Position numbers and translations under genes: made by a program. This document shows positions 1 to 59,690 of a DNA stretch of 64,000 nucleotides, one piece after another (position 1 is the first letter of the stretch; every line of letters begins with the position of its first letter). Source of the DNA: Parcubacteria bacterium C7867-006 (GTDB lineage Bacteria > Patescibacteriota > Minisyncoccia > Phycocordibacterales > DATDWN01); the NCBI GenBank assembly GCA_001189155.1, contig LFCP01000004.1, positions 68,782 to 132,781 on the forward strand. The letters are read 5' to 3'. Below the pieces are notes generated by a model, which saw nothing but the letters and a program-made list of their open reading frames with translations, made no database searches and was not told where the DNA came from.

Positions 1-80
1 GCTTCTGGTAGCTCTGATATTATTTTTTTAATTTCTTTATTAAGCACTTTATTTATATTATAATTTTATCGGAGGTAAGT

Positions 81-209
81 GTGAACCTTGCCCAGATCGC
101 AGCAGTGGCCGGCATTATTGTCGTAGCCGTTGGCTCAATCGTTGCGTTCATCTACACCTGCAAGTTCGAGAAGGCTCACCAACACATGGAAAATACTCGG
201 GGAGAATAG
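81..209 (+). CDS. small GC-rich membrane protein (42 aa, GTG start; MNLAQIAAVAGIIVVAVGSIVAFIYTCKFEKAHQHMENTRGE)
   Basis: GGAGGT Shine-Dalgarno 4 nt before GTG at 81; N-terminal TM helix; about 60% GC versus about 33% background; followed by hairpin terminator; not in ORF track (<60 aa). Confidence 0.35.
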   Translation: MNLAQIAAVAGIIVVAVGSIVAFIYTCKFEKAHQHMENTRGE

Positions 210-246
210 GTTGCGACAACCTGGATGTCGCTGGAGGCGCCATGAG

Positions 247-275
247 GGCCGGACTTGTTCCGGCTCTTTTATTTT
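247..275. terminator. rho-independent-type hairpin GCCGGA-cttgt-TCCGGC plus T-run; bidirectional between small ORF and uvrA 3' end
   Basis: perfect 6-bp GC stem, 5-nt loop, tctttt atttt run. Confidence 0.4.
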
Positions 276-2962
276 CTGTAAGCTTTATACTGTTTCAAAG
301 CTTTCTTCAAATATTTTCCTGTGTGACTCTTTTCATTGTTCGCCACCTCCTCTGGTGTGCCTTTTGCAACCAACTGTCCACCACCCGCCCCACCTTCTGG
401 ACCAATGTCCAAAATATAGTCGGCAGATTTTATGATATCCATATTGTGTTCGATAACGACAACTGTATTACCTTTATTTACCAACTTTTGCAAAATCTCA
501 ATCAACTTCTTTACATCTTCATAATGAAGACCGATAGTTGGTTCATCCAAAAGGTAAATTGTTTTCTGTAGATGTGGTCTATACAACTCAGAAGAAACTT
601 TTACTCTCTGAGCCTCTCCCCCAGATAGAGTAGTTGCCGACTGACCAAGCTCAAGATATCCAAGGCCAACATCATCCAAACATTTTAGTCTGTCATATAT
701 AGCTGGAATATCTCCAAAAAACTTCAATGCTTCTTCTACTGTCATTTTTAAAACATCGTGAATATTTTTCTTTTTATATTGAACCTCCAAAGTCTCTTTC
801 ATAAACCTCTTACCCTTACAGACATCACAAGGTACATATACTGTCGGCAAAAAGTGCATTTCAACTTCTATCATTCCATTTCCTTGGCAAGTCTCACATC
901 TTCCACCCTTAACATTGAAAGAAAACCTGTTAGCTTTCCAGCCACGAGCACGAGCCTCAGATGTTTCTGCAAACAAATCACGAATAAATGACCAACTACC
1001 TGTGTATGTCGCTGGGTTTGAACGAGGAGTTCGACCTATCGGGGACTGGTCAATCAAAATTGTTCTACCCAAATATTCTGTACCAGCAAAACTTCCGCAA
1101 TTAAATGTTTCTGCTGTTCTATATTTTCTTTCTAATCTTGCCTGAAGATTTTTATGAAGTATTTCATACACAAAAGAAGACTTACCTGAACCAGAAACTC
1201 CTGTAACAGCAACAAACCGTCCTAACGGAATATCTACGTTCATATTTTTGATATTGAAAACTTTTCCTCCACGTATTTGTATTTCACCTTTTGGATCAGT
1301 TCGTCTTTCTTCTGGAACCTCAATAACTTTATCTCCACGTAAATAATCCAATGTTACTGAACCAGATGTGTTTTTCTTTGCAGTCAACAAATCTTCTAGA
1401 TAGTCGGCTACCACAACATTACCACCATGAACCCCAGCTCCCGGGCCAATATCAACAATATAATCAGAAGCGTAAATAGTATCCTCGTCGTGCTCAACCA
1501 CCACTATAGTATTTCCAAGATTTTTTAAATCAATAAGTGTTTGTATTAGTCTATCATTGTCACGGGAATGTAATCCGATAGTTGGCTCGTCCAAAACATA
1601 AAGCGCCCCAACTAAACCAGAACCAAGCTGGCTAGCTAGACGAATACGTTGTGCCTCTCCTCCAGAAAGAGTGTGTGCTCGTCTGTCCAAAGACAAATAC
1701 TCAATACCAACGTTTAGCATAAACAGTAGTCGTGACTCGATTTCTCGCATTACAACTTTTGATATATTTTTCTCCCGCTCTGTCATTTTCAAACTTTCAA
1801 AAAACTCATATGCATCTTTAATAGACATTGCAGTTAACTCAACAATATTTTTTTTACCAATCAAAACATGCAGAGCTTCTTCTCGGAGTCTAGCACCCTT
1901 ACACTTTGGACAAGGCTCGTTACCAAAAAAGTGTCTTGTACCTAGGCCATTACATTCTGGACACGCACCGTATGGTGAGTTGAACGAAAAAAGTCTTGGC
2001 TCAACTTCTGGATATGAATACCCATCCTTCGGACAAGAAAGTTTTGAAGACATAAAAAATTCTTCAGGAATATAAGTTTTATTTTTTTCCTGACTCATAT
2101 CTCGGAACATTATTTTTACCTGACCGTCTGACTCGTTCAGAGCTTTTTCCAAATCTTCAGACAATCTTTCTTCTGCACTTTTTGTGTCAGTTTTAAAATC
2201 TAAAATAGAAATACTATCTACCAGCACATCTATAGTATGTCGTTTTGTTTTTGAAAGCTCTATTCTGTCACGAAGAGAACTTCGCACGCCATCAACTAGT
2301 ACATGTGAGTAGCCCTTACCAAGCAAATCATAAAGTAACTGATAGTACTCACCCTTTCTACCTTTTACTACGGGAGCAAAAATCTCAACATACATTGGAA
2401 GCTGAATCTTTTTTGAGTTTGCCACAAAATCTTTCTTCTTTGCCTCAACCTTTTCAAGTACAAAGTTTTTTATTTCTTCATTTGAAAGTTTTGTTATTTC
2501 ATCTCCACAAATAAGACAGTGTGGATGACCAACTCGTGAATACAAAATACGTAGATAGTCATATATTTCAGTTATGGTCGCCACTGTTGAACGAGGGTTG
2601 TTTGAACGAGACTTTTGATCAATAGAAATAGCTGGAGAAAGACCGACAATCTCATCAACATCTGGTTTCTGCATCTGTCTTAGGAACTGTCTAGCGTAGG
2701 ACGAAAGAGATTCAACGTATCTACGTTGACCTTCGGCAAAAATAGTATCGAATGCAAGCGATGACTTCCCTGAACCAGAGAGACCGGTAAAAACCACCAT
2801 CTTATTTCGTGGCATTTCTACAGTGATATTTTTAAGATTATGAGTTCTGGCTCCCTTTACTATAATCTTATCTTCGTTATTTTTATTGTCTTTTTTAACC
2901 ATATACGTAAACACAACCCCCGTTCGCTCTATAGGGTTGTTATATAAAAAGGATATTACCAC
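269..2962 (-). CDS. uvrA: excinuclease ABC subunit A UvrA (likely true start at 2902, MVKKDNK...)
   Basis: two ABC ATPase modules, [14 protein letters not shown] Walker A, zinc-finger CxxC motifs; N-terminal 20-aa extension of the ORF atypical. Confidence 0.95.
2914..2926. promoter_or_regulatory. possible LexA/Cheo-like SOS box CGAAC-N4-GTTG 12 nt upstream of the uvrA start at 2902
   Basis: CAACCCCCGTTCG resembles CGAAC-N4-GTTCG (one arm mismatch); lies inside a longer ACAACCC...GGGTTGT inverted repeat. Confidence 0.15.
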
Positions 2963-2995
2963 AGAAACAAATCAGCGACAAACAACAACGTAGAA

Positions 2996-3028
2996 GCCGG
3001 CGAGTCCTCCCAATGAAGACACGCCGGC
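2996..3028 (-). terminator. GC hairpin GCCGGCG-loop(agtcctCCCAATGAAGACA)-CGCCGGC, copy 1 of a duplicated hairpin, 9 nt after stop of small ORF 3037..3210
   Basis: 7-bp perfect stem; loop core cccaatgRagaca shared with copy at 3294..3321. Confidence 0.4.
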
Positions 3029-3036
3029 TCAACAAA

Positions 3037-3210
3037 CTATGCCCCAACAAGGGCCCTAGAACGTCCTCGAAGGCGAGGTCGAAGGTGAGAGAAAGCCTCT
3101 CTGCCGAGGCCGGGCCTCACCTCATCGAGGAGAGAGCCGGCAACACCAACGCACGCGAGGATGCAAGCGACGAGAACGGAACCTTTGACAAGCACTTCTT
3201 GGAAGTCCAT
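3037..3210 (-). CDS. small GC-rich hydrophobic protein (57 aa; MDFQEVLVKGSVLVACILACVGVAGSLLDEVRPGLGREAFSHLRPRLRGRSRALVGA)
   Basis: ATG with weak AAGGG SD; N-terminal TM-like segment; C-terminal PRLRG shared with ORF 3330..3530; followed by hairpin copy 1; upstream TTTGACG -35-like box. Confidence 0.3.
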   Translation of the reverse strand: MDFQEVLVKGSVLVACILACVGVAGSLLDEVRPGLGREAFSHLRPRLRGRSRALVGA

Positions 3211-3293
3211 GCACGGCCCTTTCGTCTAACTACCCAAAGATAATTATGTATTTTATTTATAAAAACGTCAAACAATCTTTATATAAACGAACA

Positions 3294-3321
3294 CCGGCGG
3301 CCCCCAATGGAGACACGCCGG
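3294..3321 (-). terminator. GC hairpin CCGGCG-loop(gcCCCAATGGAGACA)-CGCCGG, copy 2, 9 nt after stop of ORF 3330..3530, followed by T-rich tract
   Basis: 6-bp stem; loop motif shared with copy 1. Confidence 0.4.
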
Positions 3322-3329
3322 CAGTATAT

Positions 3330-3530
3330 CTATGTCCGAATCGCACCGCGAAGTCGAGGTGTATGCATATGGCACCTGATCCACACCCAGAAGGTAGAGA
3401 TAGAGCAATATGCGAAACACACAACAACGGCACAAAGAACATAGAAGACGATGAGGCAGATCACTCCGATGACAGTAGCTACCACTGTGGCAGCTATCAC
3501 CAAGAAAATGAGCAAGGCCTCCACGTACAT
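3330..3530 (-). CDS. small GC-rich transmembrane protein (66 aa; MYVEALLIFLVIAATVVATVIGVICLIVFYVLCAVVVCFAYCSISTFWVWIRCHMHTPRLRGAIRT)
   Basis: ATG overlaps stop of upstream ORF (TGATG coupling) with GGAG 3 nt upstream; about 35-residue hydrophobic stretch; terminator hairpin downstream. Confidence 0.35.
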   Translation of the reverse strand: MYVEALLIFLVIAATVVATVIGVICLIVFYVLCAVVVCFAYCSISTFWVWIRCHMHTPRLRGAIRT

Positions 3531-3739
3531 CAGCTCCAGTACGGAGAGTGGTCGAGCTTCGGAACCGTCCGTGGTCGAGCTTCCTCGTACCATCGTTCGG
3601 TGTGCCGGAGCACGACTTCCTTGGAAAGCGATGGCGAGTTCCACACCTCGGAGAAAGAACGCCGAGGTGCTTCGCTAACGATCACCACTCCATGAACGAC
3701 TGAAACCAGCCCGAAAAGCGCCTTAACGAGAGTTCCCAT
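3530..3739 (-). CDS. small GC-rich protein (69 aa; MGTLVKALFGLVSVVHGVVIVSEAPRRSF...) first gene of a 2-gene mini-operon
   Basis: strong SD GGGGAGGaagcggATG; N-terminal hydrophobic segment; TTGACA -35-like box at 3794..3799 just after uvrB stop. Confidence 0.4.
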   Translation of the reverse strand: MGTLVKALFGLVSVVHGVVIVSEAPRRSFSEVWNSPSLSKEVVLRHTERWYEEARPRTVPKLDHSPYWS

Positions 3740-3802
3740 CCGCTTCCTCCCCAAAGAGTGTCCTCTCTTTATTGTGTAATATTTATGATTTACTGTCAAT
3801 TA

Positions 3803-5908
3803 CTATCTCAGCAAGTCTTTGTTTCTAGGATTTACAATTTTTTTAGGTTTTTGTGACTCGAGAATTTTTTGTAGCTCAAGTATTTCATCTCTTAATATAG
3901 CGGCAGTTTCAAAATCTAATATTTTTACTGCACCATCCATTTGTTTTTCTTTCTGTCGTATTAGTTTAGCCGGATCTTTTTCTAACATTTTTTTATCAAC
4001 TTCCAACAAAGCAGAAACTGTTTTTTGATGTTCGTTTCGAAGCTGGTCAGTAATATCTTGAATTTTTTTGATAATTGTTTTTGGAGTTATGCCATGTTTT
4101 TTATTGTACTCCATCTGTAGTGTTCTACGTCTAGCAGTTTCATCTATAGCGTACTTCATAGATTTTGTAACTGTATCTGCATAAAGAATCACACGACCAT
4201 CTATGTTTCTAGCTGCACGACCAATAATCTGTATGAGTGAAGTCTCACTTCGGAGAAAACCTTCTTTATCTGCATCCAAAATTCCAATCAGTTTAACTTC
4301 TGGCAAATCCAAACCTTCTCGCAATAGATTTACACCAACAAGAACATCAAAAGTACCCCTTCGAAGATTTGTTAATATTTCAATTCTTTCTATTGTTTTG
4401 ATATCGCTATGAAGATACTCTGCCTTGATTCCCTTTTCTTTCAAATATTCACTCAGATCCTCTGCCATTTTTTTAGTTAGAGTTGTTGCGATTACCCTAC
4501 CACCATCTTTTATAGACTTCTCAGCCTCCTTTATAAAATCTTTCACCTGACCAGGATAACTCCCCTTTTCAACAATAGGTTTTACGTCTACAACTGGATC
4601 AATCAATCCTGTTGGTCGTATAACTTGTTCAACAACTTGTTCTGAATGTTCTTTTTCGTATGTACTAGGTGTAGCTGATGTGTAAATAACCTGTCCAACC
4701 CTCTCCTCAAACTCGTTGAACTTTAGAGGTCTATTGTCTTTTGCACTTGGAAGTCTGAAACCGAAATCAACTAGACTCTGTTTTCTGGAAGCATCTCCAC
4801 CGTACATCGCGCCGATTTGAGGAACTGACACATGAGACTCATCTATAACAGTCAAAAAATCTGGTGAGCCATCTTTATTGTGCGGAAAGTATGCAAGTAA
4901 TGTATCAGGAGCCTCTCCAGGTTTTTTACCAGAAAAATGTCGCGAGTAATTTTCTATTCCATTGCAATACCCCATCTCACGGATAAGTGCTAGATCATAT
5001 GTTGTGCGTCTTTTTAATCTCTCCGCTTCAAGATTTTTTCCTTCTTTCTCTAACTCCTTTAAACGTTTAGCCAATTCTGCCTTAATTGATTTAAATGCTC
5101 TCTCATTCTGCTCGTTAGTTGAAATAAAATGTTTTGCTGGAAAAAGGAAAAAAGCATCTACTTCTTTTATTATTCCACGAGTTATAGCATCAATAACTAA
5201 AATTTGTTTTATTTTACTTTCATCTATTTCAATTCGATAAATAACTTTTTCTGAAATGGGCATTATCTCTAACATATTACCTATAGCTCTGAACATTCCC
5301 GGTTTTAAGTCTGCAGTAGTTCTTTCAAAATGCACATCAATCAAGTTTCGAATAAAATCTGCTCTAGAAATTTTTTCTCCCTTACTGATTTTTACATTTA
5401 CTTTTTCATACTCAACAGGAGAACCTAAACCATAGATACAGGAAACTGACGCGACAATGATTACATCTTTTCTAGTTAAAAGAGCTTGTGTTGAAGCATG
5501 GCGAAGTCTATCTATCTCCTCATTTATCATTGCCTCTTTCTCTATGTATGTATCAGAAACTGGCATATAGGCTTCTGGCTGATAATAGTCATAATAAGAA
5601 ACAAAGTAATGCACGGCATTGTTTGGAAAAAATTCTCTATATTCCTGAGCTAGTTGTGCTGCGAGAGTTTTATTGTGAGCTATAACCAAAGTCGGCTTTT
5701 GAACCTCCTGTATAACGTTTGCAATAGTGTAAGTTTTTCCAGAACCAGTCACACCCAAAAGAGTCTGATGTTTCAGACCCTTTTTTACACCGTCGACCAA
5801 ACCCTTTATAGCTTTTGGTTGATCCCCAGCTGGAGGATATTCTCTTTTAATCTCAAATTTCATTTTCACACTATACAATAAATTTAGATATAGAAAAAGG
5901 CGACACAT
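3803..5908 (-). CDS. uvrB: excinuclease ABC subunit B UvrB (likely true start 5863, MKFEIKREYPPAGDQP)
   Basis: GVTGSGKT Walker A, helicase motifs, UvrB/UvrC interaction C-terminus; ORF-track N-terminal extension runs into a terminator hairpin loop. Confidence 0.95.
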   Translation of the reverse strand: MCRLFLYLNLLYSVKMKFEIKREYPPAGDQPKAIKGLVDGVKKGLKHQTLLGVTGSGKTYTIANVIQEVQKPTLVIAHNKTLAAQLAQEYREFFPNNAVHYFVSYYDYYQPEAYMPVSDTYIEKEAMINEEIDRLRHASTQALLTRKDVIIVASVSCIYGLGSPVEYEKVNVKISKGEKISRADFIRNLIDVHFERTTADLKPGMFRAIGNMLEIMPISEKVIYRIEIDESKIKQILVIDAITRGIIKEVDAFFLFPAKHFISTNEQNERAFKSIKAELAKRLKELEKEGKNLEAERLKRRTTYDLALIREMGYCNGIENYSRHFSGKKPGEAPDTLLAYFPHNKDGSPDFLTVIDESHVSVPQIGAMYGGDASRKQSLVDFGFRLPSAKDNRPLKFNEFEERVGQVIYTSATPSTYEKEHSEQVVEQVIRPTGLIDPVVDVKPIVEKGSYPGQVKDFIKEAEKSIKDGGRVIATTLTKKMAEDLSEYLKEKGIKAEYLHSDIKTIERIEILTNLRRGTFDVLVGVNLLREGLDLPEVKLIGILDADKEGFLRSETSLIQIIGRAARNIDGRVILYADTVTKSMKYAIDETARRRTLQMEYNKKHGITPKTIIKKIQDITDQLRNEHQKTVSALLEVDKKMLEKDPAKLIRQKEKQMDGAVKILDFETAAILRDEILELQKILESQKPKKIVNPRNKDLLR

Positions 5909-5916
5909 TGTCGCCT
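5898..5916 (-). terminator. perfect 8-bp hairpin AGGCGACA-cat-TGTCGCCT flanked by A5/T5 runs (bidirectional)
   Basis: seen directly; sits between GC-rich island 5920..6310 and uvrB start. Confidence 0.5.
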
Positions 5917-5919
5917 GGT

Positions 5920-6310
5920 GGTGGAACTACGGTTGGACTAGAAGACCCAACATATGGAGATCGTCGGGGGAAGAGTCCGACGACAGACCCATGGCAAGGC
6001 CTGGAGCGCGCTCCAAGGTTAGGTGGGGGTGGTTGCCCAAGACACCCAGTCCAACCGTGTTCCATTAGCAACACTACTACTTATTAAAAATTTGTCAAAT
6101 TGCTTTATATTAAATATAAAAAACGGCGATCCAAATGGACCAGCCGTGTGACGAGTGCGGTGGACAGTTGTCCACATAAAGAGCGTATTACAGTCTGCCG
6201 AAGCAAACTACACAGGTGGGTAGAATATCCTTCCCACGGTTATAGAGGCTTTATTCATCCTCTACCCAGACCGGGGTTATTACCTAAGTACATCACCCAC
6301 CTGAACTAAT
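5920..6310. ncRNA. candidate structured RNA(s) in GC-rich island, class unassigned
   Basis: about 55% GC island in AT-rich intergenic; long-range 11-bp helix 5929..5939/6048..6058, palindrome GGAGCGCGCTCC 6003..6014, 9-bp helix 6213..6221/6295..6303; only Pro/Arg-rich junk ORFs; no tRNA T-loop or RNase P P4 motifs found. Confidence 0.25.
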
Positions 6311-6336
6311 TGTAGCTCTATAAAAAAGAAAGTCAA

Positions 6337-7596
<1,260 letters not shown>

Positions 7597-7601
7597 TTAT
7601 A

Positions 7602-8096
7602 TTAATTCTCTACTTTCAATAGTTCGACCTCAAAAATAAGTGTAGATCCCCCTGGTATAGGTCCATAATCCTGATATCCATAACCGTACTCTGGTGGAAC
7701 AGAAAGAAGTCTCTTTCCTCCAACTCGCATGCCAACTATTCCCTCATCCCATCCTTTTATTACCTGACCAGAACCAAGTACGAACTGGAATGGTTCACCA
7801 CGAGAAACTGAACTATCAAAAACTCTTCCATCAACAAAACGTCCTGTATAGTGAACAACAACTCTACTACCCACACTTGCAATCTCTCCTGAACCAAACT
7901 CTTCATCCTGAACTAAAAGTTGTGATTGTCCTTGCGCCATATTTATTGGGTTTATTGAATCATTATTACTAAAAATAGAAACTAGTGTCTGACCGAAAAC
8001 AAAGAAAAATCCTACTATAAAGACAGCCACAGTAACAGCTATCCATTCTTTTTGACTTAATTTTTTCATAAGACTAATTATATTACGCCTAAACAC
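7602..8096 (-). CDS. FKBP-type peptidyl-prolyl cis-trans isomerase with N-terminal membrane anchor
   Basis: VVVHYTGRFVDGRVFDSS...GWDEGIVGMRVGGKR...FEVELLKV FKBP signature. Confidence 0.8.
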   Translation of the reverse strand: MFRRNIISLMKKLSQKEWIAVTVAVFIVGFFFVFGQTLVSIFSNNDSINPINMAQGQSQLLVQDEEFGSGEIASVGSRVVVHYTGRFVDGRVFDSSVSRGEPFQFVLGSGQVIKGWDEGIVGMRVGGKRLLSVPPEYGYGYQDYGPIPGGSTLIFEVELLKVEN

Positions 8097-8121
8097 TAAT
8101 GTAAATTAGGAAAACTAGGCT

Positions 8122-8877
8122 ATGGCGTATATAATGCCCAATATGTCAAAATCAAAGAAAACTCCTATTGAGAAAAAGGATGTTTATCCAATGAGAATAA
8201 ACAAATACCTAGCACACAAAGGACTGGCTACCCGCACAGGAGTAGATGAACTAATAAAAAGCAAAAAAATCCTTATAAATGGAGTTCTGGCTAAACTTGG
8301 AGACAAAGTTTCTGAAACTGATAAAGTTGAAGTTAGAGGTGTTCACAATAAAAAATATATTTATTTGGCTTACAACAAACCGGTTGGAATAGTTAGTACA
8401 AATCCTCAAGGTGACGAGAAAAGTATTATGGAGAACATAAAAATAAAAGAAAAAGTCTTCCCTGTTGGCCGACTAGACAAAGAATCTCATGGACTTATTA
8501 TTTTAACCAATGACGGCAGAGTAACAGATAGACTTCTAAATCCAGATAAAGATCATGAGAAAGAATATATCGTTAAAGTTGATAGAGCCTACACACCAGG
8601 GTTTATTAGAAATATGGAAAATGGAGTTGATATTGGAGATGGTATAACAAAAAAAGCAAAACTTAAAAAAATCAAAGAAAACATTTTTAGTATCACTTTA
8701 ACAGAAGGTAAAAATCGCCAGATTAGAAGAATGACTGAAAAACTTGGATACACTGTTCGAGATTTACAAAGAGTTCGTATACAAAATATTGAACTTGGTA
8801 AAACTCCAGTCAATAGTTATAGAGAAATAAATGGTGAGGAAAAGACAGAATTTTTAAAAAGTATAGGTTTAGAATAA
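8122..8877 (+). CDS. RNA pseudouridine synthase (RsuA/RluB family, S4 domain)
   Basis: S4 RNA-binding N-terminus, PVGRLDKESHGLIILTNDG catalytic Asp motif. Confidence 0.8.
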   Translation: MAYIMPNMSKSKKTPIEKKDVYPMRINKYLAHKGLATRTGVDELIKSKKILINGVLAKLGDKVSETDKVEVRGVHNKKYIYLAYNKPVGIVSTNPQGDEKSIMENIKIKEKVFPVGRLDKESHGLIILTNDGRVTDRLLNPDKDHEKEYIVKVDRAYTPGFIRNMENGVDIGDGITKKAKLKKIKENIFSITLTEGKNRQIRRMTEKLGYTVRDLQRVRIQNIELGKTPVNSYREINGEEKTEFLKSIGLE

Positions 8878-8917
8878 GAACTTGCGATTAAAGCTTTAGC
8901 CAAGTAAAATAAAGACT

Positions 8918-9542
8918 ATGAGTCCAAAAGAAATAATAAATACCCCGCCGAAACAATCGCCGGTTGAAATACTTACAAGACAAGAACTACACGACACAGC
9001 AGTTGAAAGAGTGCACCTTATCGCAAAAGAATTCACAAATGCTTTTAGTTTCCTGAGAAAATACCCTAAATCAGTAACGGCATTTGGCGGAAGTCATTTT
9101 AAAGAAACTGATCCAGAATACATTAAAGCAAGAAGTATCAGCTCTAGAATAGCCCAGGAATTACAATACTCAGTTGTTACAGGAGGAGGTCCAGGAATAA
9201 TGGAGGCTGTAAATAGAGGTGCTTTTGAAGTTGGAGGTCAGTCTCTAGGACTAACTATTGAACTTTCTAAACATCAAATAAAAAATAACTACCTAACAGA
9301 TAATCCAAACTAAAAAAATAGAGAGAGTTCCAATAATTCTAGTAGGTAGTGATTTCTGGAACCCGATTCATGAACTAATGAAAAAAGAACTACTAGGTCG
9401 AGGCACTATTGATGCTGATGATTTGGAACTATACAAAATACTAGACGATGAAGACGAAATAATAAACGTTATCAAAAACGCCCCAATTAGAAACGGAATA
9501 AAGTTTGACCACAAAGATGGTGAGGTTGTTTCAGATATGTAA
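8918..9542 (+). pseudogene. LOG-family (TIGR00730, cytokinin riboside 5'-monophosphate phosphoribohydrolase-like) gene, disrupted
   Basis: frame 1 ends at 9313 after motif 1 VTGGGPGIMEAV; C-terminal PIILVGSDFW...ELL segment continues in another frame from 9321; about 45 aa including the PGGxGTxEE motif are missing. Confidence 0.55.
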
Positions 9543-10927: not shown

Positions 10928-11533
10928 TTATGCTTTTGTTTTATTTTTTCTTGAAACCCAGTACTCATAAACTGAAGGCAGAAGAGAAACAAAAATAATA
11001 AGAAATACCATATAGTGAAGATACTTCTCCACACCAGGCATAACTCTACCTAAATAAAAACCGATAGACGTAACGCCTATAGTCCAAAGAAATCCACCAA
11101 AAACAGAATCTATTGTGAATTTTTTAAACGACATATTTACTGCTCCTGCTAGAGTTGGCGCAAATGATCTGACAACAGGAACAAACCTTCCAATTATAAG
11201 CGTTTTATCTCCATATTTATTATAAAAATCCTGTGTGTAGTCCAAATGTTTCTTTTTGAACCAATATTTATCATTGCTTTTTAAAATAAAATTTCGAAGT
11301 CTCTCTCCCATAAAATAACTGAAGTTGTAACCCAAAATACTTGCGATAAAAAGAGTTGGTAGAAGTATTGCCATACTAAAGTAACCCTGTGATGCAAGAA
11401 AACCTGTAGTAAACAGAAGTGAATCACCTGGTAAATAAAAAGTAAGCGGAAAAGATTCAAGAAAAATAATTATAAAAAGAATAAAATATCCGTAATATCC
11501 AACGTCTTTTATGAGACCGATCAAATGTTCCAT
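10928..11533 (-). CDS. DedA/SNARE-associated family membrane protein
   Basis: FLESFPLTFYLPGDSLLFTTGFL DedA signature, multiple TM. Confidence 0.8.
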   Translation of the reverse strand: MEHLIGLIKDVGYYGYFILFIIIFLESFPLTFYLPGDSLLFTTGFLASQGYFSMAILLPTLFIASILGYNFSYFMGERLRNFILKSNDKYWFKKKHLDYTQDFYNKYGDKTLIIGRFVPVVRSFAPTLAGAVNMSFKKFTIDSVFGGFLWTIGVTSIGFYLGRVMPGVEKYLHYMVFLIIFVSLLPSVYEYWVSRKNKTKA

Positions 11534-11645
11534 GGGAGCTATTGTAACATAATTTTATGTAAAGAAATCAACACAAAGAGAAACTCCACACGAATGTAGG
11601 ACGTGGGAGTCCCTCATTTACGTGTGGAGTATGGCCAGCCGAGAG

Positions 11646-11786
11646 CTAACCACGAGTGAGGAAAGCGAGAAGAAGACCAGCGAGGAGAACCGCGCCAATC
11701 CAGAGCCAGTAGTTCGGCTTTTTCGTAGCCGAGTTCTGGATCTCACCACTTTCCGACGAATCGAGTCTGCCGAGCGTAACAGCCAT
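11646..11786 (-). CDS. small GC-rich tail-anchored membrane protein (46 aa; MAVTLGRLDSSESGEIQNSATKKPNYWLWIGAVLLAGLLLAFLTRG)
   Basis: strong SD AGGAGGGTG-ATG; C-terminal TM helix; GC-rich island 11590..11810; followed by 9-bp hairpin CTCCACACG...CGTGTGGAG plus TTT; not in ORF track (<60 aa). Confidence 0.35.
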   Translation of the reverse strand: MAVTLGRLDSSESGEIQNSATKKPNYWLWIGAVLLAGLLLAFLTRG

Positions 11787-13296: not shown

Positions 13297-14184
13297 ATGC
13301 GTATCGCACGCTCGCTCGCTCTCGTTCTGTTGGTGTTTCTGTCGGCAACCAACGCTTTCGCCCAGAAGGGTGAATACGCTGTGCCGAAGGACGCCCAGCT
13401 CGAACAATATCCGGTACTCGAGGCCAACAAGCCTCTGACCGTGGTGCAGATCGCAGACATGCACTTGCATCCGATCCGGTTGGACAAACCGACCGTGGTT
13501 CAGAACCACTTCCGTGGACTACACGGAAAGGAAGGTCGATTCGTCGTCGAGACGTTGCCGAAAGGCACACTCGTTCTCGTCGACGAAAACAACAACCTCC
13601 GTTACAAGGAGGACTGCGGGAACCGGTTGGTGGAGTTCGACAATCAAGCACTCGTTCGGGGAATCATTTCCTCTGACAAGTTGTCTGAACCTGTTGTTGT
13701 CCACGATGGTGACACGCTGATTGTGTCGCCCGACAGTACGAAAGTCATCCCGGCAAAACCGATGATGAGTCTGTGGGATACAGTAGCTTCTACCGTTCGT
13801 AGAGGTGTTGAGTGGCTTACGCCATTTGCACATTTCATCGGATGGCTGCTACTTGCGATTCTCCTCTTCGGTATCATCTGGGCCGTCATCATGGCTGGCC
13901 TCGAGGATAGGGATAGGAGACGATACAATCGCAACCAGATGGTTGGTGATCAAACACACCCATCGCACCCGGCCGCGACTGTCCCGCCTCCTGCCCCAAA
14001 TGCCCCCGCAGCGACGACACCGGCAGCAGCTCCGGCCAATACTGAAAGGGCGTTTATCACCCACTCTGCTGGTAGCGGCTCAAATCCGCACCTTCTGCGG
14101 TGGGGAGGCTTGGACTTCCACAGCCTCGAGGTGGCACCGGACGGGGTTCACTCCCTGCGGTACCATCCCAGGACCAGTAAGTAG
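13297..14184 (+). CDS. GC-rich secreted, membrane-anchored protein of unknown function (signal peptide, ectodomain, one TM, Pro/Ala-rich tail)
   Basis: 295-aa ORF at about 57% GC; signal peptide MRIARSLALVLLVFLSATNAFAQ; TM LLLAILLFGIIWAVIMAGL; own promoter, SD and terminator. Confidence 0.55.
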   Translation: MRIARSLALVLLVFLSATNAFAQKGEYAVPKDAQLEQYPVLEANKPLTVVQIADMHLHPIRLDKPTVVQNHFRGLHGKEGRFVVETLPKGTLVLVDENNNLRYKEDCGNRLVEFDNQALVRGIISSDKLSEPVVVHDGDTLIVSPDSTKVIPAKPMMSLWDTVASTVRRGVEWLTPFAHFIGWLLLAILLFGIIWAVIMAGLEDRDRRRYNRNQMVGDQTHPSHPAATVPPPAPNAPAATTPAAAPANTERAFITHSAGSGSNPHLLRWGGLDFHSLEVAPDGVHSLRYHPRTSK

Positions 14185-19885: not shown

Positions 19886-20802
19886 TTAAGCGATTATCAA
19901 AGGATCAACTATTATTGATTTATACACATACAAAAGACCGAAAATAACAGTGAGTAAACCGATTGCCAAAAATACCATTCTTAAATTATGAGCTCTAAAC
20001 TCTATAAATACAGTAAAAGCTAAACCGATAGTTACTAACAACGCTATTAGAGAATACAAAATACTCAATGATTTCTCTGGAGAAAATAGAGCTCTTTCAA
20101 AAAAGTTTGAGTATTTCACCTTTGGTGAAACTGTAGTAGCAAGACTATTCTTTTTTGCACTCACATACAGCTCATTTGTTCCATTCTCACCCAAAACTTC
20201 TGTTGAAACCGATTCAGACAACACCGCCGAAGATGCGGCTGAAACTATTGGTTTTTCTGTAACTTTTTTTGTTGTAGTTTTTGGAGCACTGACAATAGTC
20301 TCTGGTTCAGCTGGTCTTCCGAAAAGTTGAACCACAAAAGTAGTCATTTTCCCTTGGTACATTCCATCGGCAGTAGCAATACCAATTTCTGTAAAGTTTT
20401 CGTTCATTATGTTTGCCTTGTGACCAGGAGAGTTCATCCACGCAGTGTTTACATCTACAGAATCATTAAAATTCACCGCTAGGTTTTCACCAGCGTAAGC
20501 AAAATCGTAACCAACTTGCTTGAACCAATACCATGGAGTAAATGTCCATAATTTTTTGCATCTCTGTCCTGATTTGCGTAGTCCACCAAAACTTTTGGTA
20601 AAACAAGTGCAGTAAAATCAGTACCAACTAATATACGACCGGAAACAGCAACCAAAAATAAAGCGATGACTGTAAGGAAAATTGCAAAAACAGAAACTTC
20701 TCTGAAAATATGAGGTTTATAGTTATTTACTTTATGTGGAATAAAGTATTTTTTGAACCATTTAAACATAAATAAATTGTAACAGTTAAAATCAAAAAAC
20801 AC
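19886..20802 (-). pseudogene. CAP/SCP (YkwD-like) domain membrane protein disrupted by a homopolymer frameshift
   Basis: ORFs 20479..20802 and 19886..20476 are one gene; the CAP core ...GYDFAYAGENLAVNFNDSVDVNTAWMNSPGHKANIM continues in the +1 frame through a T6 run at 20552..20557 (A7 needed). Confidence 0.55.
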
Positions 20803-23779: not shown

Positions 23780-24126
23780 AATTTTTATAAATTTAATAAT
23801 TTTTATAACGCAAAAACCGGCCTAAAAAGACCGGTTATGCTATTAGCTCCCCACAGCCCAAGCGTCCAAATACAGACTGTGGTTCATCGCCTTCTTTAGT
23901 AACAACTAAACCCTAAATATCTAACTAAATCGTATTCTACACTAACTTAAAATATCGTCAATGGTTGAGCAAATTCACTAAATTTTATTAAAATTGATTA
24001 AAAAATTAAATTATTATTATAAAAATATCATTTTTTTTAATTTTTTTAAAAAATAATGAAAATTTAGAAATTATAAAACTTCACAACGATGTGAAGTTTT
24101 ATAAAACAAAAACTAGAAAACTTTTG

Positions 24127-26919: not shown

Positions 26920-27516
26920 CTAGAACACGTCGCCCGAGGTCCCCTCCGAAGAGTTGACCCAATTGTCGCTGATACCGTGGTACACCCACCCCCAGAATTC
27001 GTATGAGTAGGTGTTGACCGTGAAGTACGTAGTGAGCCAGGAAGCGTAACCGGGACAGTTGCCATTGATGTCGCAGGCGTAGTCCACGATGCCGATGTTA
27101 CCCTTGGTCTTCCAGGCCGGCGCCGGGTTGAGAACTCCGTCGATGATGAGCACGTACCCGCCCTCGAACGTTCCGTCTTCCTCACCGGTAAGGGGTCCGT
27201 TGTTGCCGGGGCTGGTCTGCCCAGCCTGGGCGTCGAACTGGCCGGAGTTCCGAACCACCGCGCAGTACTTGCCGTCGGGCTGAGCCCACACCTGGATCGT
27301 ACGGTTGAGATCGTCGAAGGCCCAGTTGTTGCCGGCGAGACCGGAATCCACGTCATGGATGACCTTACCCGTAACGTTGATGACCGGGGGGCCAACACGC
27401 TGGCAGGTGCCAGCGTTGACCTGGGTACCCCAGTTGAGGTTCTCGCGAGGATCAGCATTCGCATGGGAGACGACCCCCAGGACACTGGCCAGGACAGCGC
27501 ACCAAATAAACTTCAT
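26920..27516 (-). CDS. GC-rich secreted Trp/Gly/Asn-rich protein of unknown function (198 aa)
   Basis: about 58% GC; signal peptide MKFIWCAVLASVLGVVSHANA; AAGGAG SD; own terminator; overlapping alternative-frame ORF 26835..27485 is Arg/Pro-rich junk. Confidence 0.5.
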   Translation of the reverse strand: MKFIWCAVLASVLGVVSHANADPRENLNWGTQVNAGTCQRVGPPVINVTGKVIHDVDSGLAGNNWAFDDLNRTIQVWAQPDGKYCAVVRNSGQFDAQAGQTSPGNNGPLTGEEDGTFEGGYVLIIDGVLNPAPAWKTKGNIGIVDYACDINGNCPGYASWLTTYFTVNTYSYEFWGWVYHGISDNWVNSSEGTSGDVF

Positions 27517-34046: not shown

Positions 34047-34310
34047 ATGAATGGGACCACGTCTGAATTGTACGGAGACTCCCAGTTGATCTACCTCGGC
34101 GAAAATCTCGTGAGGATGTTCAGGGGCGGCCGACACGTAGAGATTGGAGAGAGGAGAATTCTCGCGACCAGCCACAGACAAGTTGAGGTCGTCAAGATCA
34201 AGAAGCCTCAGAACCCATATGACGAGCATGAACCAATCGTCGAGGTGGAGTGCACTCTACCTAGTGGCGACAAGATTAGAAGTCTCATCAGATTTGATGA
34301 GTTGAGGTGA
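34047..34310 (+). CDS. GC-rich small soluble protein (87 aa) of unknown function
   Basis: about 55% GC island; strong SD GAGGAGG 6 nt before ATG at 34047; followed by hairpin AGGGGGT...ACCCCTCT plus T-run. Confidence 0.4.
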   Translation: MNGTTSELYGDSQLIYLGENLVRMFRGGRHVEIGERRILATSHRQVEVVKIKKPQNPYDEHEPIVEVECTLPSGDKIRSLIRFDELR

Positions 34311-59223: not shown

Positions 59224-59552
59224 AATATTTTATTGCTAACTAATAAGAGAGAAGGGCTTTTAAAGAAAAAGCCACTTCTTATAACTCTGCAGTAAACAAA
59301 GTTATCCGAATGAGTGACATTTTAGGTAGACTATCTAGGTTTGTATTCAAATTATAGAACGATAGGGGCCAAAAAGTCGATATGACTTATCCACAGATAT
59401 TTAATCATGTCAAGAGTGTAAAGAATGTAAATCGCTTCGCAGGGATTGAGTGATGTGATAGGGTGGAAAAATAGCACCCAAAAGTGCTATGATAAGAGCA
59501 CAATTTAATAAGTATAAGTAGCCTAAACCTAGTTTTCACTAGGCATGGTGAA

Positions 59553-59690
59553 AAGTCCTATCAAGCATAAAGAACCCATCATGGGGTCGCTTGATAGGCC
59601 ATATCGGGAAACCGGTATGAGAGACTTCGGTCTCTACCCGTGGTGGGCTTTTTGTGTATCTGCCACGGCATTAGCAAGTCCTATCAAGCA
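59553..59690 (+). promoter_or_regulatory. structured leader: 15-nt direct repeat AAGTCCTATCAAGCA (59553 and 59676) plus inverted partner GCTTGATAGG (59589) and hairpin GAGAGAC-ttcg-GTCTCT followed by T5
   Basis: seen directly; second repeat covers the RBS of the HNH gene; middle arm can pair with either flanking copy. Confidence 0.3.

Follow-up and report, generated by a model that had tools for sequence, protein, structure and literature searches.

Putative autonomous GC-rich units encoding small membrane proteins in a candidate variable slot between uvrB and uvrA of a Parcubacteria genome

The uvrB-uvrA spacer and described gene cassettes

Morons are independent transcription units that have been added between two conserved phage genes (PMC3594210), and the PeSL cassettes of T4-type phages comprise promoter and stem-loop motifs that mediate the modular shuffling of ORFan genes (PMC2839356). 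Type I loci, including TisB/IstR-1, DinQ/AgrB, Ldr/Rdl, and Fst, encode short hydrophobic proteins with charged or aromatic tails (PMC2887945, PMC3567139), and a short length, at least one transmembrane stretch, and a charged or aromatic tail serve as heuristics for predicting type I toxins (Fozo et al. 2010, PMC2887945). Lineage-specific small membrane proteins that have been mis-annotated are likewise shorter than 70 amino acids (aa) and hydrophobic, and they are missed or called on the wrong strand and detected by comparison only. Here, we analyzed 64,000 nucleotides of Parcubacteria bacterium C7867-006 (contig LFCP01000004.1; the whole stretch is referred to as the window), in which a cassette at positions 2963-3802, read from the minus strand, lies between uvrB (3803-5863, minus) and uvrA (269-2902, minus), with tgt, uvrC, and adk as further neighbors, and we compared this locus with the systems above.

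We consider it rather probable that the uvrB-uvrA spacer of this Parcubacteria lineage is a variable slot for autonomous, moron-like units that encode lineage-restricted small membrane proteins. The block that separates the two repair genes is GC-rich, as a first-pass annotation of this DNA had reported; its GC content is 51.1% at positions 2942-3788 versus 35.7% in the whole window. The three open reading frames (ORFs) of 69, 66, and 57 aa which that annotation placed there were all present. Promoters were searched by scoring matches to the 12 positions of the sigma70 consensus (threshold, 9/12, later lowered to 8/12 for the antisense strand), and this revealed exactly two promoter-like sites between 2800 and 3950, both on the minus strand and one ahead of each unit. 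The site of unit 1 (3771-3799; TTGACA, 17 nt, CACAAT) begins 4 nt past the uvrB stop codon, that of unit 2 lies at 3243-3271 (TTGACG, 17 nt, CATAAT), and both scored 10/12. Unit 1 ends in a stem-loop at 3293-3322 (minus), with a GCCGGCG base, a GUCUCC/GGGGGC upper stem, and an AUU loop (-26.2 kcal/mol, z -3.9), while that of unit 2 (2995-3029, minus) has a 14-pair stem containing one U/U mismatch, and its loop is AUUGG (-27.8 kcal/mol, z -4.5). Thus, with one promoter and one stem-loop per unit, the block is composed of two promoter-to-stem-loop units.

The 5' arms of the two stem-loops are alike at 19/20 positions, and a C-G pair of one copy is replaced by U-A in the other, a change that is fully compensatory. 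The 20-nt motif that they share, GCCGGCGTGTCTYCATTGGG, occurs twice in the 64 kb (3303-3322 and 3009-3028) and in none of 100 shuffles. Two strong stem-loops are thus repeated here, as had been noted, and only part of their earlier description holds: the supposed conserved loop core belongs mostly to the 5' arm of a 13- to 14-bp stem, the real loops being only 3 and 5 nt, and the distance from the stop codon to GCCGGCG is 7 nt in unit 1 and 8 nt in unit 2 rather than exactly 9 nt in both. Across four copies of the stem-loop, the GCCGGCG/CGCCGG base is constant, and the upper stems (GUCUCC/GGGGGC, GUCUUC/GAGGAC, GGGUC/GACCC, and GGUCUU/AGACC) differ yet stay paired. In AT-rich loci, the GCCGGCG..CGCCGG pattern was found only in the uvrB-uvrA slot (window and all fetched loci), and a scan of JGI metagenomes for the motif gave three chance matches on contigs of 60-70% GC without further similarity. 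An Rfam search of 2850-3900 yielded nothing at the gathering threshold and only chance matches at E = 5-8 in a list extending to E <= 10. We also considered the stem-loop as a dispersed repeat or the end of a mobile element and rejected this, as the window holds two copies and no others. The unit 1 stem-loop is followed by the imperfect T-rich tail UGUUCGUUUAUAUA and appears to be terminator-like; it may end or stabilize the transcript. Downstream of unit 2, a site at 2953-2981 (minus; TTGTCG, 17 nt, TAATAT, preceded by TG) was read by eye and scored 8/12, under the scan threshold; its equivalent, TGGTATTAT, is present in the related contigs L083 and L012, and it is probably the promoter of uvrA itself and the 3' boundary of the cassette.

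Comparison with relatives revealed that the content of this position varies. DNA 100% identical to window positions 1-9297 is present in JGI metagenome 3300001199 and in the Logan assembly of SRR2043728. L083, a 1.4-kb JGI contig, carries a near-identical uvrB directly followed by an ORF1 relative and shares the promoter, ORF1, ORF2, the stem-loop, and the uvrA leader with the window. Its unit 1 promoter is 100% identical to that of the window over about 35 nt, whereas the 4-fold degenerate sites of uvrB differ at 43%. A second relative, contig L012 of a metagenome-assembled genome (MAG; CAYQQL010000001.1; uvrB 90% and uvrA 96% identical at the protein level), retains the promoter, the leader, the stem-loop, and the T-rich tail, the latter identical to that of the window. 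BLAST similarity between L012 and the window runs up through the Shine-Dalgarno site and resumes from the uvrA leader, and the segment in between (290 bp) encodes a protein of 77 aa that has two helices and a basic tail and shows no similarity to ORF1, ORF2, or ORF3. Since a relative of ORF1 is still recognizable at 47% identity (see below), the cargo of L012 has been replaced rather than merely diverged. In L003, a MAG named 'Parcubacteria group bacterium' (uvrB 80% and uvrA 82% identical), the uvrB-uvrA spacer is 76 bp, and in L037 it is 40 bp; uvrB matches ranking after L012 and L003 came from Paceibacterota, Campbellbacteria, and other Patescibacteria. The frame of promoter and stem-loop is therefore carried by the window (twice), L083, and L012, and it holds three different cargos, which may have been exchanged by recombination. 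In a scan of the window and of the loci of its eleven closest relatives, the promoter frame was confined to the uvrB-uvrA slot. With a spacer of only 76 bp in L003 and another gene in L012, the position of the small genes between uvrB and uvrA is incidental.

The cassette resembles a moron in having its own promoter and a terminator-like stem-loop (both predicted from sequence), a deviating GC content, and a small cargo, and in lying between genes that are adjacent in relatives (76 bp apart in L003 and 40 bp in L037). It differs in being chromosomal and placed between core repair genes, with no phage gene or phage similarity nearby, in being richer in GC than its host, and in having diverged in step with the host genes after L083 split off. 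With PeSL cassettes, it shares small ORFans placed between a sigma70-like promoter that is conserved and a G/C-rich stem-loop, a tandem repeat in one genome, and close relatives in which the cargo has been inserted, lost, or replaced. However, it occupies one locus in two copies, compared with about 50 PeSL copies across hyperplastic regions, its genes lie between promoter and stem-loop while PeSL fuses both in one short motif, and its host is a bacterium, not a phage; no recombination or mini-circles were observed. Thus, the cassette belongs to neither the moron nor the PeSL class. It also recalls the mis-annotated small membrane proteins in the size and hydrophobicity of its products, in having been missed or placed on the wrong strand, and in having been detected by comparison only, and it differs from them in being a coupled pair of foreign codon composition.

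An origin from a phage or plasmid was examined and rejected: no blastn match was obtained in phages or plasmids, and PHROGs gave nothing meaningful. Viral contigs contained no relative of ORF1 or of two proteins (198 and 295 aa) encoded by other GC-rich islets of the window. A defense system was discarded as well, as PADLOC returned no match.

Coding status, descent, and composition of ORF1 and ORF2

ORF1 (3530-3739, minus; 69 aa) is preceded by the Shine-Dalgarno sequence GGGGAGG that had been assigned to it (3746-3752, minus), 6 nt ahead of its ATG; the counterpart is GGAGGGG in L083 and GGGAGGGGAG in L012. The predicted protein has an N-terminal hydrophobic helix (residues 1 to about 25) followed by a polar domain of about 45 aa, in which the motifs APR[RK]xFxEVWNS and H-x-ERW-x-EE are conserved. 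An exhaustive HMMER search of 1.84 billion cluster representatives, which cover about 15 billion predicted proteins, identified two relatives, P0001 on L083 (69 aa, 81% identity) and P0003 (71 aa, 47% identity); a profile search added nothing to these two, and a metagenome scan with the ORF1 alignment gave no match. P0003 is encoded on a 779-bp contig of GCA_041442895.1, where a 67-aa gene begins 3 nt after its stop codon on the same strand, and this neighbor has the position and size expected of an ORF2 counterpart.

The ratio of nonsynonymous to synonymous divergence (dN/dS, or omega) between the window and L083 was 0.14 for the ORF1 frame, the minimum of the six frames, and 28 of the 46 nucleotide differences fell in the third codon position. 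These data indicated that ORF1 is, by its pattern of substitution, a real gene under purifying selection, and that it encodes a conserved protein rather than serving simply as a leader. Its synonymous divergence (dS, 0.92) is close to that of the flanking uvrB (0.96, with an omega of 0.035), which suggests that the cassette was already present in the common ancestor of the two genomes and has been inherited vertically since.

ORF2 (3330-3530, minus) encodes 66 aa if translation begins with the ATG at 3530 and 64 aa if it begins at the conserved start, a GTG at 3524. By hydropathy, the protein consists of a hydrophobic region (about 47 residues, or residues 1-53), which probably forms two transmembrane helices, followed by the basic tail CHMHxPR[LF]RGAIRT (WIRCHMHTPRLRGAIRT in the window). 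Its orthologue in L083 is 75% identical and of equal length and frame, and the dN/dS of ORF2 (0.26-0.29) was again the lowest of the six frames, from which we judge ORF2, too, to be a real gene. Conservation of ORF1, ORF2, and the hairpin in a related genome was thus found, as the first-pass reading of the cassette would have it. Beyond L083, no relative of ORF2 was recovered by a word-index search with the single sequence or with the two-sequence alignment. An extension of the ORF2 frame upstream to 104 aa (3330-3644) is open in both genomes, and we rejected it as non-coding on its omega of 2.4-3.4.

The overlap of the ORF1 stop with an ATG (TGATG), earlier taken as a sign of translational coupling, is present in the window and is not conserved, since ORF2 of L083 starts with an ATG located 5 nt past the ORF1 stop, where the window has a GTG (3524-3522). 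A GGAG lies 9 nt upstream of this start in both sequences, placing the ribosome-binding site within the last codons of ORF1. On this comparison, the close coupling of ORF1 and ORF2 appears to be conserved, and the TGATG overlap is not.

The composition of the three ORFs is foreign to this genome: the GC content at third codon positions (GC3) was 0.53-0.61 in ORF1-3 and 0.18-0.27 in eight core genes (about 0.6 versus about 0.24). The GC-rich portion starts approximately at the predicted transcription start, and the promoters are AT-rich and host-like. Under a host-like mutation model calibrated on uvrB, an ancestral GC content at 4-fold degenerate sites (GC4) of 0.8-1.0 would be needed to arrive at the present 0.52-0.61, an estimate based on 54 sites only; such an ancestral value would be extreme, though possible. 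The high GC content may be left over from a transfer out of a very GC-rich donor, or it may be maintained.

These results are consistent with the following scheme. Unit 1 would have a transcript of its own, initiated at the sigma70-like promoter that immediately follows the uvrB stop codon, and ORF1 would be translated from the strong Shine-Dalgarno sequence into a protein that combines a membrane helix at its N terminus with the conserved polar domain. ORF2, a predicted two-helix protein with a basic tail, would then be translated by close coupling or re-initiation from a start 0-5 nt from the ORF1 stop codon, and the transcript would end, or be stabilized, at the GC-rich stem-loop, separating it from uvrA with its own promoter. 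The products of ORF1 and ORF2 would most likely cooperate in the cell membrane, in an accessory, non-essential role, and toxin-like, immunity-like, or pore-like activities of the products are possible. Unit 2 would be a later addition confined to the window genome, in which the promoter, the tail codons, and the stem-loop were copied around the body of ORF3. ORF1 and ORF2 represent new and very rare families of small proteins in an ultra-small, host-dependent bacterium, and in such organisms membrane and surface proteins are likely the interface with the host.

A number of observations weigh against a variable slot for autonomous units. The frame was found in three genomes only, and cargo exchange rests on the single replacement in L012. 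The T-tracts after both stem-loops are interrupted, so the efficiency of termination is uncertain. The ribosome-binding site of ORF3 (AAAGGG) is weak, none of the fetched loci contained a homologue, and existing records do not call ORF3 as a gene. For ORF2, dS was 0.46, about half that of ORF1, and two runs (3353-3380, 28 nt, and 3406-3425, 20 nt) are exactly the same in the window and L083; together with the unusually structured unit 1 mRNA (z -4.73), these features hint at an additional constraint at the RNA level. Finally, Pfam, NCBIfam, PADLOC, and PHROG provided no homology-based function for any of the three ORFs, and AlphaFold, run on ORF1 with a three-sequence alignment, returned an unusable model (predicted local distance difference test score, pLDDT, 58.9). 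The sole match of a sequence search against PDB was a designed helical repeat (E = 0.005).

Unit 2 and alternative readings of the cassette

ORF3 (3037-3210, minus) is a candidate gene of 57 aa with a hydrophobic helix at about residues 3-31 and the basic tail HLRPRLRGRSRALVGA. The first-pass annotation had regarded the locus as a duplicated gene-plus-terminator unit, and it was right about the likeness of the ORF2 and ORF3 C termini, which have PRLRG in common (BLASTP E = 0.008). At the nucleotide level, however, units 1 and 2 are alike only in the promoter, an 11-nt leader element (TCTTTGGGG/TAG), the PRLRG codons, and the stem-loop. The match between ORF3 and ORF2 extends over 9 residues only, and ORF3 has no similarity to ORF1. 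The gene bodies are therefore unrelated, and duplication of a whole unit was rejected, while the duplication stands for the promoter, leader element, tail codons, and stem-loop; the data thus support a cassette that encodes small hydrophobic proteins, repeats a terminator-like stem-loop, and has in part been copied locally. Unit 2 was seen only in the window genome and is absent in L083 and L012, and the two stem-loops of the window resemble each other (19/20) more than either resembles the L083 orthologue. This pattern suggests a recent local re-use or conversion of the unit 1 frame, in which the frame and the tail would have been placed around another body.

A possible but doubtful alternative is that unit 2 (3243-2990) is non-coding, and that ORF3 is a frame open by chance in GC-rich DNA; unit 2 would then be a part of unit 1 that was copied and is decaying, or a small structured RNA (about 245 nt) driven by the copied promoter. 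The lack of a homologue and the weak ribosome-binding site would be explained in this way, as would the codon-usage score of ORF3 (0.18), which is no better than that of its own antisense frame (0.24), while in ORF1, ORF2, and three further islet genes the sense frame scores higher; the predicted unit 2 transcript is also moderately structured (z -2.4). On the other hand, 12 of 14 nt in the PRLRG codons of ORF2 and ORF3 are identical and the differences are synonymous (CGA/CGC, CGC/CGA, and GGT/GGA, three in total along PRLRG), and the retention of the peptide despite synonymous changes suggests selection on the peptide. ORF3 further shows a clean hydrophobic helix with a basic tail, resembling ORF2 and the L012 protein, and Rfam has no match that would identify unit 2 as a known RNA.

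It is unlikely that the locus is a type I toxin-antitoxin-like system, in which ORF2, ORF3, or both would damage the membrane, would be held in check by an antisense or trans-acting small RNA, and might be induced together with the repair genes. The idea has an evident basis, since the strong hydrophobic stretches that had been noticed in ORF2 and ORF3 were borne out by hydropathy, and ORF2 (64-66 aa) and ORF3 (57 aa) satisfy the type I heuristics for size, transmembrane stretch, and tail (PMC2887945): both are below 70 aa, have a charged or aromatic C-terminal cluster, and are repeated within one intergenic region. Like the known type I loci, the cassette is intergenic, shows a partial tandem repeat, and has a structured mRNA (z -4.73 for unit 1), and synonymous change in ORF2 is locally suppressed, as expected for RNA pairing or folding. 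Yet no antisense-strand promoter was found at 9/12 or at 8/12, and none is shared with L083 or L012, a consensus scan being one that weak promoters, or an RNA encoded elsewhere, can escape. No toxin family was matched by ORF1, ORF2, or ORF3 at E <= 1 in Pfam, NCBIfam, or PADLOC, and the few weak Pfam matches were unrelated. Pfam includes models for Hok, Ldr, Fst, TisB, and Ibs.

Nor did the proposed link to the SOS response withstand comparison. LexA-type boxes (GAACN4GTTC, at most 1 mismatch) occurred 22 times versus 22.1 expected, none perfect and none at the cassette promoters; this box is of the Gram-positive type and may not be the one used by Parcubacteria. The cassette is missing or replaced in close relatives, the uvr neighborhood being incidental. 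In addition, the hydrophobic ORF2 is the second cistron, coupled to a conserved ORF1 (omega 0.14), which is atypical of type I loci. The resemblance of the cassette to them is generic, and neither a tie of the small genes to the SOS response nor one to a toxin under RNA control is supported. DNA repair and the SOS response are not seen in a new light through this locus.

Within the variable-slot reading, ORF1 and ORF2 could also form a bacteriocin-immunity-like or holin-like pair, with ORF1 as the active peptide, secreted or anchored, and ORF2 as its protector or pore partner, but we regard this variant as quite improbable. Small bacteriocin and immunity genes are often laid out like ORF1 and ORF2. 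Here, a protein of about 70 aa with an N-terminal hydrophobic segment is coupled to a two-helix protein of about 65 aa, and the cassette is accessory, strain-variable, and compositionally foreign. Against this, a double-glycine leader and a lipobox are both missing, the one plausible signal-peptidase site is followed by a conserved proline (EA|P, NA|P), the neighborhood has no genes for transport or modification, and neither ORF1 nor ORF2 matched a PHROG holin or a Pfam bacteriocin.

Least credible of all is that the real genes are those of the public JGI annotation of the identical contig, which places ORFs of 149 aa (window 3246-3695) and 76 aa (3013-3243) on the plus strand (L087 5603-6052 and 6055-6285), the first antisense to ORF1/ORF2 and the second to ORF3; both frames are open and were picked by the gene caller, and the 149-aa frame has an omega of 0.26 in the ORF1 region, but it shares third codon positions with ORF1 and so inherits the codon periodicity of that gene, the sense omega is lower in both halves (0.14 versus 0.26, and 0.26 versus 0.37-0.39), the plus-strand start is not conserved in L083, there is no Shine-Dalgarno sequence or promoter on that strand, the two promoters and the two T-rich tails belong to the minus strand, and the 47%-identical homologue of ORF1 was called in the sense orientation. 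On omega, start, promoter, and Shine-Dalgarno sequence, the plus-strand ORFs were rejected as shadow frames of GC-rich genes. The case illustrates an annotation problem, namely that small GC-rich genes in an AT-rich genome can be called on the wrong strand.

Other GC-rich islets and features of the window

The window contains at least six GC-rich islets, the uvrB-uvrA cassette among them. Five others hold a single gene each, at 81-209 (plus; 42 aa), 11646-11786 (minus; 46 aa), 13297-14184 (plus; 295 aa), 26920-27516 (minus; 198 aa), and 34047-34310 (plus; 87 aa), and all five combine an AT-rich sigma70-like promoter with a GGAGG site and a terminator hairpin. Four of the five products are predicted to contain a signal peptide or a hydrophobic helix. 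GC3 is 0.57-0.79 in these five genes and 0.53-0.79 when ORF1-3 are included. Their promoters and terminators are unrelated to those of the cassette, and the islet proteins gave no convincing match in Pfam, NCBIfam, PADLOC, or PHROGs.

A broader interpretation would be that such islets reflect a genome-wide habit, in which short, autonomous GC-rich genes, mostly for membrane or secreted proteins, lie in intergenic slots behind AT-rich promoters of the host type and are exchanged as cargo between close relatives within conserved frames, a PeSL- or moron-like shuffling in a cellular chromosome; their high GC content would be actively maintained, for instance for the stability or structure of the RNA, and not be a fading trace of transfer, and ORF1-ORF2 would constitute a new membrane module, possibly toxin-like; we consider this speculative and improbable as a whole. 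If cargo swapping were general, it would offer a route by which genomes of the candidate phyla radiation gain and exchange accessory genes, and the main wider interest of the locus lies in this pattern of frame-bounded GC-rich islets in a genome of that radiation.

The 42-aa hydrophobic ORF of the first islet (81-209, plus), located downstream of uvrA, is matched in L012 by a diverged counterpart of 58 aa (11183-11551, minus). The pair has ..QI(A/S)AV.. and a C-terminal (T/S)RGE in common, and their DNA is not alignable by blastn. L012 further contains a 515-bp segment (3294-3808; 42% GC) between an FKBP-type gene and tgt that is not in the window, another variable slot, and in the slot between tgt and uvrB it carries a 207-aa pilin-like gene.

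In the window, the gap between tgt and uvrB is occupied by two GC-rich, non-coding-looking units at 5893-6066 and 6112-6305 (both minus), each with a terminator hairpin and a T-run, the upstream one with a clear promoter-like site. Very stable folds are predicted for both (z -6.1, including a closing helix of some 20 bp, and z -3.4); they have no match in Rfam and are candidate small RNAs. On the other side of the cassette, the uvrA leader contains a short hairpin (CAACCC...GGGTTG; 2914-2939, minus) upstream of the uvrA start. At this site, the leaders of L012 and L003 have a different sequence that, by eye, is apparently capable of forming a hairpin too, and this may be a conserved leader structure.

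Near window position 20539, a JGI contig of the same organism (L001 11371-11465) has 93 extra bases, reflecting either a length polymorphism or an assembly difference. Elsewhere in the window, a c-di-GMP-II riboswitch (23820-23903, minus; 63 bits) and a LOOT RNA (59520-59635, plus; 88 bits) were recognized.

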